From: a virus | Lineage: Duplodnaviria; Heunggongvirae; Uroviricota; Caudoviricetes | Strand: one strand, 5' to 3' | DNA length: 12,452 nucleotides | Virus record (IMG/VR): IMGVR_UViG_2713896784_000025 | Shown: one piece after another, positions 3,122-9,819 of the stretch | How the letters are laid out: each line of letters starts with the position of its first letter | Position numbering within the stretch: position 1 is the first letter of the stretch | The notes under the pieces: generated by a model | Told to the model about the DNA's origin: nothing | Databases searched by the model: none | Seen by the model: only the letters and a program-made list of their open reading frames with translations | Program-made: the position numbers and the translations under genes

Positions 3122-3171
3122 NNNNNNNNNNNNNNNNNNNNNNNNNNNNNNNNNNNNNNNNNNNNNNNNNN

Positions 3172-7364: not shown

Positions 7365-7556
7365 ATGGGTACAGCCCTTTCTCCGATAGTTTCAGAATTC
7401 GAAACTACCGAACAAGAAAACAGTTACAACGAATGGTTGCGCACTAAAGTAACGTCAAGCCTTGCAGACACTCGCCCCGCAATTCCACATGACGAGGTAA
7501 TGGCTGAAATGGAAAATCTTATTGCTCAAATTGCTGTAACTAACAAGAGCGAGTAA
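7365..7556 (+). CDS. paaA2: Type II antitoxin partner of ParE (PaaA2-like), 63 aa
   Basis: GGAG ribosome-binding site; stop TAA overlaps the ATG of the downstream toxin (TAATG). Size and sequence (SEFETTEQENSYNEWLRTKVTSSLADTRPAIPHDEV) fit my recollection of PaaA2; symbol is tentative. Confidence 0.7.
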   Translation: MGTALSPIVSEFETTEQENSYNEWLRTKVTSSLADTRPAIPHDEVMAEMENLIAQIAVTNKSE

Positions 7557-7843
7557 TGTTACCCATTTTATGGCTACCGTCTGCTCGCGATGATTTGCGC
7601 CAGATCATAACTTACATCGCCAAGGAGAACCCACCGGCAGCACGTAGACTAAAAATACGCATTGAAACATCGGTATTACCTCTATCTGAGCATCCGTACT
7701 TATATCCACCAAGCGAACGGGTTTCTGGATTGAGAGAGATCGTGACCCACCCTAACTACATAATCCTGTACAGAGTAGCTGCTTCAAGCATTGAGATTGT
7801 AAGCGTGACACATTCTCGGCGACAATTTCCCTTCTCTATCTGA
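7556..7843 (+). CDS. parE: ParE/RelE-superfamily toxin (ParE2-like), 95 aa
   Basis: MLPILWLPSARDDLRQIITYIAKENPPAARRL...LSEHPYLYPPSERVSGLREIVTHPNYIILYRV: the characteristic ParE N-terminal helix and core. Translationally coupled to the antitoxin. Confidence 0.85.
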   Translation: MLPILWLPSARDDLRQIITYIAKENPPAARRLKIRIETSVLPLSEHPYLYPPSERVSGLREIVTHPNYIILYRVAASSIEIVSVTHSRRQFPFSI

Positions 7844-7893
7844 GTTGAACAATTTTCATACTCCCTCTTTCGAGGGATTTTTTTGCCCAAAAC

Positions 7894-7933
7894 AACAATT
7901 AAAAACTGTTGACACAAAAACAGTTTTTTATTG
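7894..7933 (+). promoter_or_regulatory. Second operator copy with embedded TTGACA (OL/pL-like)
   Basis: ACAATTAAAAACTGT (7894-7908, 14/15 identical to the OR left arm) and ACAGTTTTTTATTGT (7919-7933, identical to the OR right arm), 10-nt spacer. TTGACA at 7908-7913; the -10 element is ambiguous (TAGATT at 7933-7938). Confidence 0.5.
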
Positions 7934-8125
7934 TAGATTACATACACCAACCACCCACCCCGCCCCACAGAACGCCGGGCAATACTTCGAGTTACCAAGC
8001 AGTGGTCAGGGGGTAAGTAGCCAGCCCGAGGCGTATGAACATGACGGCAGGGTTCAACTTTAATAACTATGCAGCNNNNNNNNNNNNNNNNNNNNNNNNN
8101 NNNNNNNNNNNNNNNNNNNNNNNNN

Positions 8126-8284
8126 GCTGGCTGGAAAGAAACTCAGGTGAGTGATATGGATTTCGACACAATCATGGAAAAGGCTTACGAAGAATACTTC
8201 GAAGGCCTTGCCGAAGGCGAGGAAGCTCTCAGCTTCAGTGAGTTTAAACAGGCGCTTTCCAGTTCGGCAAAATCTAACGACTAA
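8126..8284 (+). CDS. Small acidic ORF, first early-left gene; 5' end hidden by N block
   Basis: Open frame after the N block (...MDFDTIMEKAYEEYFEGLAEGEEALSFSEFKQALSSSAKSND); internal ATG at 8156 follows AGGTGA. An ATG at 8069 lies before the N block in the same nominal frame. Confidence 0.3.
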   Translation, partial: AGWKETQVSDMDFDTIMEKAYEEYFEGLAEGEEALSFSEFKQALSSSAKSND

Positions 8285-8295
8285 CGGAGTTAAAG

Positions 8296-8685
8296 ATGGA
8301 ATTTAAAGATTTACTAAAAGAAATCCAGGAAATTGCAGCACATGCACTTCACCAACGTCTGAACGAAGTTGAATTAGAATCTGCAACGAAGAAATACATT
8401 GATAATATGGCTCGTAATGTGCGCGATGCGTTTACCGGATTGTACTCTGTTTCGGTAACAAACAACCAGAATACTGAAGAAACTGCAAAGCGGATTGCCT
8501 CGGTGATGGGTTTTCATGTCGAGGAAAAGTATTCAAAAAAAGAATTCTGGAAAACTACAAAAAAATTGCAGAGCGAGAACTGTCATCTCCTGCGGCAATC
8601 GCTTCTTTCTATGAGGAAAGTTATTCAGATGACACAGGATTACCGGAACTGCTCTCATTACTTGAAAAATTCGGAATTATCATGA
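8296..8685 (+). CDS. Hypothetical early protein, 129 aa as written; likely frameshifted
   Basis: ATG at 8296 with GGAG 8 nt upstream. After an A8 run (8533-8540) the frame becomes poor, while a different frame continues protein-like to 8833. Confidence 0.55.
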   Translation: MEFKDLLKEIQEIAAHALHQRLNEVELESATKKYIDNMARNVRDAFTGLYSVSVTNNQNTEETAKRIASVMGFHVEEKYSKKEFWKTTKKLQSENCHLLRQSLLSMRKVIQMTQDYRNCSHYLKNSELS

Positions 8686-8833
8686 AAGGGACTGCGTCGG
8701 CGGATTTCACATACTCAATGATGGCTGCTGATGGAGAGCCTTTTCCTCCCGAACTTAAAATAACCCCCGGCAATCATCCGATGGTAACAATAAGAGCAAT
8801 AGAGAATTACTGGTTTAATCCAGTTCAACAATA
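8478..8833 (+). other. Alternative-frame continuation of the 8296 gene (together about 180 aa if a 1-nt shift occurs near the A8/A7 runs)
   Basis: This frame is open from 8478 to a TAG at 8831-8833 and translates as ...ILENYKKIAERELSSPAAIASFYEESYSDDTGLPELLSLLEKFGIIMKGTASADF...PVQQ. Confidence 0.35.
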
Positions 8834-8871
8834 GTTGGTCTTTGCAATATTTTTAATGGGCCACTACGCCC

Positions 8872-9056
8872 TTAATCTCGGGCGGCGTTTAACTCTTTAT
8901 TCAGTAAATCAGACTGATACTGATTTGGCTTTGTAATGATACTGTCAAGTTTTGATATATGAAATTCAACATGTTCTGGACAGTTAAAAATGTAATAACC
9001 GCCCTTCTCTAAAAAGCCAGAAAGAGCGTTACAGGCAGGGCATGGTTTGTTTGGCA
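8872..9056 (-). CDS. Small zinc-ribbon protein (CPxC...CPxH), about 61 aa, convergent to the early-left genes
   Basis: ATG at 9056 with GGAGGA 4 nt upstream (MPNKPCPACNALSGFLEKGGYYIFNCPEHVEF...). An in-frame ATG at 9068 would add four residues. Confidence 0.55.
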
Positions 9057-9281
9057 TTTTATCCTCCATTAAGGGCTGAATTAAAAATGGAGACCAACAC
9101 GCTGCTACGTGTGGTCGTGCGCCGGACACAGATAAGAATCCGGCACTGACAGTTTACTGAAAGGATATATCCCTGAAAAGTCAGGGCATAACACGAAAGT
9201 GCACGGCGAAGTCCTTCTCCCTTAGAGCCGTCGTTAAATTTAATTCGACCGTGCGCTTCCGGTTGTGGCAATCCGCGAAAT

Positions 9282-9367
9282 GGCGCGGCGGTAAGTATGG
9301 CGGGGTTATTCTTTCCCCGTTGAGGACACCGGGTTGTCAGGTTGACCATACGCTTAAGTGACAACCC
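9282..9367. other. Cluster of three GC-rich hairpins in non-coding DNA
   Basis: CCGCG-aaatgg-CGCGG (9282-9297), CGGGG-(9 nt)-CCCCG (9301-9319), GGGTTGTCA-(19 nt)-TGACAACCC (9331-9367, perfect 9-bp stem). Confidence 0.35.
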
Positions 9368-9404
9368 CGCTGCAACGCCCTCTGTTATCAATATTCTGGT
9401 GACA

Positions 9405-9451
9405 TTTGGCGGTATCAGTTTTACTCCGTAACTGCTCTGCCGCCCTTTTTT
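9405..9451 (+). terminator. Weak intrinsic-terminator-like element (plus strand)
   Basis: GGCGG ... CTGCCGCC with a long loop, followed by TTTTTT at 9446-9451. Confidence 0.25.
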
Positions 9452-9613
9452 AAAAGTGAATTTTGTGATGCGGTGAATGCGGCTCAGCGCACGCGGAACA
9501 GTTAAATCGGTAAAGCGGTCATTTGCTGAGTAACGAGAATGCTCTGTATCCGGCGTTAATTGTTAACTGGTTAACGTCACCTGGAGGCACCAGGCACCGC
9601 ATCACAAAATTCA
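9452..9613. repeat. Long-range inverted repeat (about 20-bp arms, 19/20 matching) flanking about 120 bp upstream of the 9631 gene
   Basis: GTGAATTTTGTGATGCGGTG (9452-9471) is the reverse complement of CACCGCATCACAAAATTCAT (9594-9613) except for one base; the interior holds two GTTAAC sites. Confidence 0.45.
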
Positions 9614-9630
9614 TTGTTGAGGACGCGATA

Positions 9631-9819
9631 ATGGAAAAGTTATCATGTAATGCCAGCACGTCTGAACTTCGTTTCGAAATTGGCGTTATCACTGGAGACA
9701 AAACATTTATTGAAGACGCCATTAAGCAGAGAAAACTCGAGCAGGACCTGTTAAATGAAGTATGCATTCCTTCAATGCTGGCTCGTCTGGACCTGCTGCA
9801 AAAAGGATATAAACAATGA
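9631..9819 (+). CDS. Hypothetical small protein, 62 aa
   Basis: ATG at 9631 with GAGGA upstream (MEKLSCNASTSELRFEIGVITGDK...); stop overlaps the next start (ATGA). Confidence 0.55.
   Translation: MEKLSCNASTSELRFEIGVITGDKTFIEDAIKQRKLEQDLLNEVCIPSMLARLDLLQKGYKQ

Follow-up and report, generated by a model that had tools for sequence, protein, structure and literature searches.

In E. coli dnaX, tRNA-Lys re-pairs in the −1 frame on the in-phase lysine-codon heptamer A_AAA_AAG, with a Shine-Dalgarno-like element upstream and a hairpin downstream, and slippage shortens the product. A-run heptamers situated between two overlapping frames of one longer protein are also described for frameshifting on A_AAA_AAA or A_AAA_AAG in IS3- and IS1-family elements, as well as for Thermus dnaX, Shigella mxiE and Buchnera, in which transcriptional slippage rescues poly(A) indels (PMC4066793); in the insertion-sequence and poly(A)-rescue cases the site is conserved within the family and is usually accompanied by a stem-loop or pseudoknot, or by a run of at least nine bases. 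In E. coli, the heptamer A_AAA_AAA is among those on which −1 frameshifting exceeds 0.1% when no stimulator is present, and genes of this species contain fewer AAAAAAA runs than expected, possibly owing to the risk of slippage and indels (PMC4066793). A related heptamer, C_AAA_AAA, yielded 25–60% frameshifting in an overexpression vector (PMC1851650). One-base contractions of poly(A) runs are also found in pseudogenes of the cryptic and defective E. coli prophages, where they introduce a premature stop, are fixed, affect non-essential accessory genes and occur beside nonsense-bearing neighbours.

Here, we describe a split gene in a 12,452-nt stretch of DNA from a tailed-phage record of IMG/VR (IMGVR_UViG_2713896784_000025), the whole of which is referred to as the window. 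The gene is like the prophage pseudogenes in each of these respects, and is set apart from them only by the nature of its retained half, a complete module that defines the family and is also found alone. With dnaX it shares an in-phase lysine-codon heptamer that would allow tRNA-Lys to re-pair in the −1 frame; in contrast to dnaX, the last base of the heptamer is A rather than G, the Shine-Dalgarno-like element and the hairpin are both lacking, the orthologues are in frame, and slippage would lengthen the product rather than shorten it. The locus likewise differs from the insertion-sequence and poly(A)-rescue cases in that the arrangement is derived, confined to one allele with a 7-base run and devoid of a stimulator. 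We favour, with a probability of roughly 0.8, a fixed homopolymer frameshift of the ordinary kind that truncates an accessory prophage gene, and not a recoding device.

One gene divided between two reading frames

The frame-0 ORF occupies positions 8296–8685 on the plus strand, where it extends from an ATG at 8296 to a TGA at 8683–8685 and encodes 129 aa that are labelled in RefSeq as the hypothetical protein WP_000394511.1. The first 90 residues of this product are authentic; the remaining 39 form an out-of-frame tail (8566–8682) whose codons resemble nothing in intact homologues. No stop interrupts the −1 frame between 8478 and a TAG at 8832–8834, such that the two frames overlap at 8478–8685, and the −1 frame harbours a remnant of the C-terminal module at 8565–8834 (plus strand; 89 codons and TAG) that intact orthologues encode directly after the N-terminal part. 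Indeed, the 89 codons at 8565–8831 match residues 91–178 of an intact 186-aa homologue with 61% identity (E=2e-36). The preliminary description, which was made from the letters of the window, held that the frame opened at 8296 degrades whereas another frame stays protein-like to 8833, and both halves of this statement are borne out by the homologue match in the −1 frame and by the tail that matches nothing.

Joining 8296–8565 to 8565–8834 rebuilds a 179-aa protein exactly. A search with this fused reading (8296–8565 plus 8565–8831, 179 aa) retrieved full-length single-ORF proteins, the closest of which (P0001, 179 aa) is 94% identical over 100% of the length with E=1.7e-103, followed by P0002 (179 aa, 84% identity), P0003 (180 aa, 80% identity) and six more distant intact proteins of 177–186 aa with 63–70% identity. 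All of these are single ORFs that reach the equivalent of 8831–8834 or beyond, and none ends near 8685. Thus, the view that a single-base break in frame at an A run divides one gene of about 180 aa is upheld by the agreement of the fused 179-aa reading with a 179-aa single ORF. Between intact alleles the C-terminal half exhibits a dN/dS of 0.17–0.22 at a dS of about 1.2, which argues that this half is genuine coding sequence under purifying selection.

The frame break coincides with an A7 run at 8559–8565 (plus strand), which is read ACA AAA AAA TTG in frame 0. Alignment of the DNA with five intact loci (L004, L007, L009, L002 and L003) reveals that the run length at this position, A8 versus A7, is the sole frame-changing difference: L004, L007 and L009 read AAAAAAAA where the window has AAAAAAA. 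Across the junction P0001 reads ...KEFWKTTKKIAERE..., which is exactly what a −1 shift on this run predicts. An A8 run had previously been reported at 8533–8540, and no such run exists; the runs actually present are the A7 at 8559–8565 and a first A7 at 8535–8541 (plus strand; TCA AAA AAA GAA), the latter being the run that had been called A8. It had also been left open which of the two nearby A runs had slipped. The second run stands as the site of the break, being A8 in the orthologues, whereas the first does not: it is A7 in four of the five aligned intact loci and A6 in L009, is in frame in all five, and was ruled out as the site of the lesion. Between the two runs lies the conserved EFWK motif, which is read in frame 0. 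The distant intact alleles ETEC4068 and TUM9812 read CCAAACGCATC where the second run would stand, and the distant orthologues of 177–186 aa have no run there; it is thus not conserved across the family.

Further downstream, the ancestral Met130 codon overlaps the new frame-0 stop as ATGA (8682–8685), an arrangement at which reinitiation is possible and would produce a 50-aa C-terminal fragment. The corresponding 50-codon ORF in the old frame (8682–8834, plus strand) is predicted as a separate protein by some gene callers (P0122). The old-frame peptide ELSSPAAIASFYEESYSDDTGLPELLSLLEK could arise by slippage only, and the peptide GTASADFTYSMMAADGEPFPPELK either by slippage or by reinitiation at 8682.

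Distribution of the A7 allele and its explanation

A 106-nt probe carrying the A7 version matches 386 of 5426 complete E. coli genomes, in every case with at least 99% identity, and 384 of these 386 carriers are identical to the probe across the site. The A8 version of the same probe has no perfect match among the 5426 genomes; 384 genomes score 99.1% with it, equivalent to one gap, and are therefore A7. One of the two non-identical carriers (E105) was inspected and has A7 together with a SNP. The distant intact type accounts for about 26 further complete genomes (412 full-length matches minus 386). The sampled carriers comprise O157:H7, O121:H19 and O111:H11 strains as well as a pig isolate; all have the same prophage early region, in which nearly all protein accessions are identical, and the same 129-aa product is given by RefSeq in all four carrier genomes whose annotation was read. 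The 775-nt stretch at 8126–8900 is 100% identical to an EDL933 record. The pig isolate NJS001 is the nearest match to the window over 6 kb, with 2 mismatches, as against 7 mismatches and an indel for an O157:H7 genome. A search of a phage genome collection returned only one weak match, of 138 nt.

The A7 allele is thus a real inherited mutation and not a sequencing error, an origin that had been offered as one possibility. Homopolymers are classic sites of sequencing error, the window contains three 50-N stretches, and an apparent A6 form of the run in GCA_008122345.1 is itself a homopolymer artefact, all of which might suggest that the true state is A8 and the gene intact. The chance of this is nevertheless negligible, given the identical A7 in 384 complete genomes sequenced independently by many laboratories from many isolate sources, the lack of A8 in any of them, and the RefSeq product shared by the four annotated carriers. 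The A6 form cannot be taken as a true allele: over 3.3 kb, GCA_008122345.1 (L012) departs from the window only at four A runs, each of which has lost one base (at the equivalents of window positions 8559, 8986, 9083 and 9800), its gene calls for relE and the exonuclease are likewise broken, and the 105-aa ‘A6’ protein cluster to which it gives rise (P0011, 70 member sequences) is spurious. This bears directly on the idea of a phase-variable contingency locus, in which the tract would switch between A6, A7 and A8 within populations and thereby switch the C-terminal module. Database proteins do fit each of the three lengths (P0011 for A6, P0010 for A7 and P0001 for A8), but the A6 case is the error-prone assembly, A7 is fixed in at least 384 of the 386 carriers (of the remaining two, the one inspected is also A7), and the A8 alleles carry many other substitutions and reside in other phage backgrounds, such that switching is extremely improbable.

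What is left to weigh is whether the inherited A7 allele is a plain loss or serves a purpose. Preliminary consideration had included a genuine pseudogene, and this is the reading that the intact single-ORF orthologues, the specific A8-to-A7 indel and the presence of the lesion in 384 of 386 carriers support. On this account, the ancestral gene would have encoded a 179-aa two-module protein, and replication slippage on the homopolymer is the most likely source of the contraction at 8559–8565. Ribosomes would then leave the original frame at codon 91, so that the main product would be the 129-aa protein, composed of the N-terminal module and the 39-residue nonsense tail and lacking the C-terminal module. 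The mutation probably occurred once, in one phage lineage, and was subsequently carried by lysogeny into several E. coli lineages, a spread that would imply that the full-length product is dispensable for the phage. Should slippage on the A7 run occasionally yield full-length protein, this would represent an unselected leak.

Changes unique to the lineage of the window were sought at 8400–9057 by comparison with the five intact loci and number five in total: the A8-to-A7 contraction, R163M, a nonsense change in the convergent neighbouring gene and two missense changes in the same neighbour. R163M results from a G to T change at 8782 and replaces an arginine that is invariant in 9 of 9 intact homologues; it is the sole lineage-specific change in the part of the gene that is no longer read, where 4 differences from L004 are too few for statistics. 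No synonymous change unique to the lineage was found at 8400–9057, all five being damaging or non-synonymous. Although not statistically significant, this pattern of changes is consistent with relaxed constraint on both the split gene and its convergent neighbour.

Several features are less readily accommodated by plain truncation, and these are where the remaining explanations find their footing: the A7 run lies exactly in phase as an A_AAA_AAA heptamer, the old frame downstream is still free of stops, the frameshifted allele is far commoner in the databases than the intact A8 form, and the signal of relaxed constraint, drawn from only five changes, is not statistically significant. The first two would be expected of recoded expression, whereby a −1 ribosomal slip at 8559–8565, or an extra A inserted by RNA polymerase, generates 129-aa and 179-aa products at a selected ratio. 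A_AAA_AAA is found in the zero-frame phase (X_XXY_YYZ) at 8559–8565, and also at 8535–8541, in both cases inside the frame overlap and with the −1 frame open over 8478–8834; the slipped product would reproduce the exact intact junction, ...EFWKTTKK|IAERE..., and the heptamer is measurably shifty in E. coli (PMC4066793; PMC1851650). Since C_AAA_AAA gave 25–60% frameshifting, appreciable amounts of full-length protein could still be made. In addition, the A7 allele is unchanged in hundreds of genomes of several serotypes, and the existence of stand-alone N-terminal-module proteins suggests that a short product could be of use. The split arrangement and the heptamer are, however, derived rather than conserved, because all orthologues outside the A7 allele are single ORFs, with A8 in frame in the closest relatives and no run in the distant ones. 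Folding of the RNA downstream of the run is no better than that of shuffled sequences (z = 0.18 and −0.27), and no GGAGG-like Shine-Dalgarno element was seen in the 25 nt upstream. Transcriptional slippage would call for a long run conserved out of frame, whereas here the run has 7 bases and belongs to one allele; lengths of about nine or more are reportedly typical of efficient transcriptional slippage in bacteria. The invariant arginine replaced in the downstream frame also argues against a maintained C-terminal module, and the sampled carriers share one near-identical prophage region, so that persistence of the allele requires no selection. Beyond the in-phase heptamer, slippage-dependent expression, which had likewise been entertained at the outset, thus gains no support, and we regard selected recoding as improbable. 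Its narrower form, a site kept at low efficiency that yields mostly the 129-aa protein with a set minority of the 179-aa protein and perhaps the 50-aa reinitiation fragment, a mixture that would explain the spread in Shiga-toxin-producing E. coli, is very improbable. If recoding were true, the locus would offer a prophage example of a “saved” indel, and the evidence does not favour it.

The abundance of the frameshifted allele, with 386 complete genomes against 0 for intact A8, may instead be taken to suggest adaptive inactivation, according to which the lysogen pays a cost for the intact pair, loss of the C-terminal module and the nonsense change in the neighbour were selected for that reason, and the truncated N-terminal-module protein is the functional form. 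Two adjacent, overlapping, convergent genes are indeed truncated in one lineage, and the N-terminal module occurs naturally as stand-alone small proteins. These counts are, however, confounded by clonal expansion and by heavy sampling of O157:H7, neither gene has a known function, and the retained N-terminal module has itself been hit by P7L, at a proline that is invariant in intact homologues, which looks more like general decay; selection for inactivation is accordingly decidedly improbable. The excess of A7 over A8 could reflect a benefit, or it could reflect hitch-hiking together with a sampling bias towards Shiga-toxin-producing strains.

The dicBF operon and the convergent neighbour

The locus belongs to a Qin-like lambdoid prophage, of which it forms the dicBF early operon, with the split gene in the ydfC slot. 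The DicF small RNA is located at 9394–9445 on the plus strand (Rfam RF00039, 76.9 bits, E=5.9e-16, full length), about 560 nt downstream of the split gene and separated from it by a convergent ORF on the opposite strand. Upstream, ydfB is placed in the same operon at 8156–8284 (plus strand) by transfer of coordinates from the O157:H7 locus L001 with an offset of 5289. In the RefSeq annotation of an identical region, the order is cro-like and cI-like repressors, relB, relE/parE, ydfA (DUF1391), ydfB, the split ORF, the small convergent ORF, dicB, a DUF1482 gene and an exonuclease. Assignment to dicBF follows from the presence of DicF and dicB downstream and of ydfA and ydfB upstream, all on the same strand, with a DicA/DicC-type repressor pair adjacent. 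The layout is the same as that of the K-12 Qin operon (ydfA-ydfB-ydfC-dicF-dicB-ydfD), including the DUF1482 gene (PMC5069750), and differs from it in that the gene in the ydfC slot is an alternative cassette and in that an extra convergent small gene precedes dicF. Homology of the split gene to K-12 YdfC (b1573) was considered and rejected, the BLASTP match having E=0.055 over 33 residues. A scan of 7800–9700 for promoters and terminators gave nothing above the expectation from shuffled sequence.

The convergent neighbour (8872–9057, minus strand) encodes a 61-aa protein (WP_001133046.1) with a CxxC...CPxH motif that belongs to PHROG 10133. A G to T change at 8873 has turned the TCA codon present in the five intact loci into TAA at 8872–8874, thereby cutting an 80-aa product to 61 aa. 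In the intact loci the gene extends over the equivalent of 8815–9057, and the 20 nt at its 3′ end are shared with the 3′ end of the 179-aa gene. WP_000394511.1 (129 aa) and WP_001133046.1 (61 aa) should thus be corrected to truncated forms of 179-aa and 80-aa genes, respectively; RefSeq lists both as ordinary hypothetical proteins, and the public annotation carries no flag.

A type II toxin–antitoxin pair of the RelB and RelE/ParE type is present at 7365–7843 (plus strand), between the cI-like repressor gene and ydfA. The K-12 Qin, ETEC4068 and TUM9812 forms of this region have nothing at the equivalent position.

A two-module protein family

The N-terminal module is helical and defines the family. 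It spans about 55 aa (MEFKDLP..IQ.IAA....RNVRDAFTGLY) and is the widely shared part of the protein, as indicated by PHROG matches and by a profile search; it is either joined to varied C-termini, for example in the 212-aa ‘Ybl81’ type, or found alone in proteins of 50–130 aa. Among 1.84 billion representatives, the profile search identified only 83 relatives, nearly all of which have the N-terminal module only. The C-terminal module (about residues 82–179) is rare, and a divergent, stand-alone-like version (P0136) starts at the EFW motif. The frameshift at codon 91 therefore spares the N-terminal module and removes essentially the whole of the C-terminal one. Matches to the N-terminal module are found in PHROGs 1363, 2151, 9419, 6937 and 33007, which, like PHROG 10133 of the neighbour, are families of unknown function, and sequence profiles from Pfam, NCBIfam, PADLOC and the PDB gave no significant match. 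An AlphaFold2 model of P0001, computed from a 27-sequence alignment, is of poor quality, with a mean pLDDT of 53.7 and only the helices of residues 1–55 reaching about 75. These comparisons define a small family of two-module proteins whose genes fill the ydfC slot of dicBF operons, a definition that may aid work on prophage accessory genes.

The gene is mosaic over 8296–8560, where codons 8–33 match the relatives of the 212-aa ‘Ybl81’ type and not the full-length alleles that are closest overall. Just 5′ of the second A run, the similarity to the ETEC4068 allele drops abruptly, which puts a recombination junction beside the frameshift site.

The window also contains three stretches of exactly 50 N, at 722–771, 3122–3171 and 8076–8125. 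The third corresponds to 172 nt in the complete genomes L001, L013 and L014 and is therefore a gap or mask whose length differs from that of the sequence it replaces; most of ydfA, including its start, is concealed by it. Following relE, in intergenic DNA at 7916 and 7923–7929, we note a one-base difference in the length of an A run (CACAAAAACAG) accompanied by nearby SNPs, which distinguishes the window from the O157:H7 (L001) and O121:H19 (L013) copies and not from that of the pig isolate (L014).
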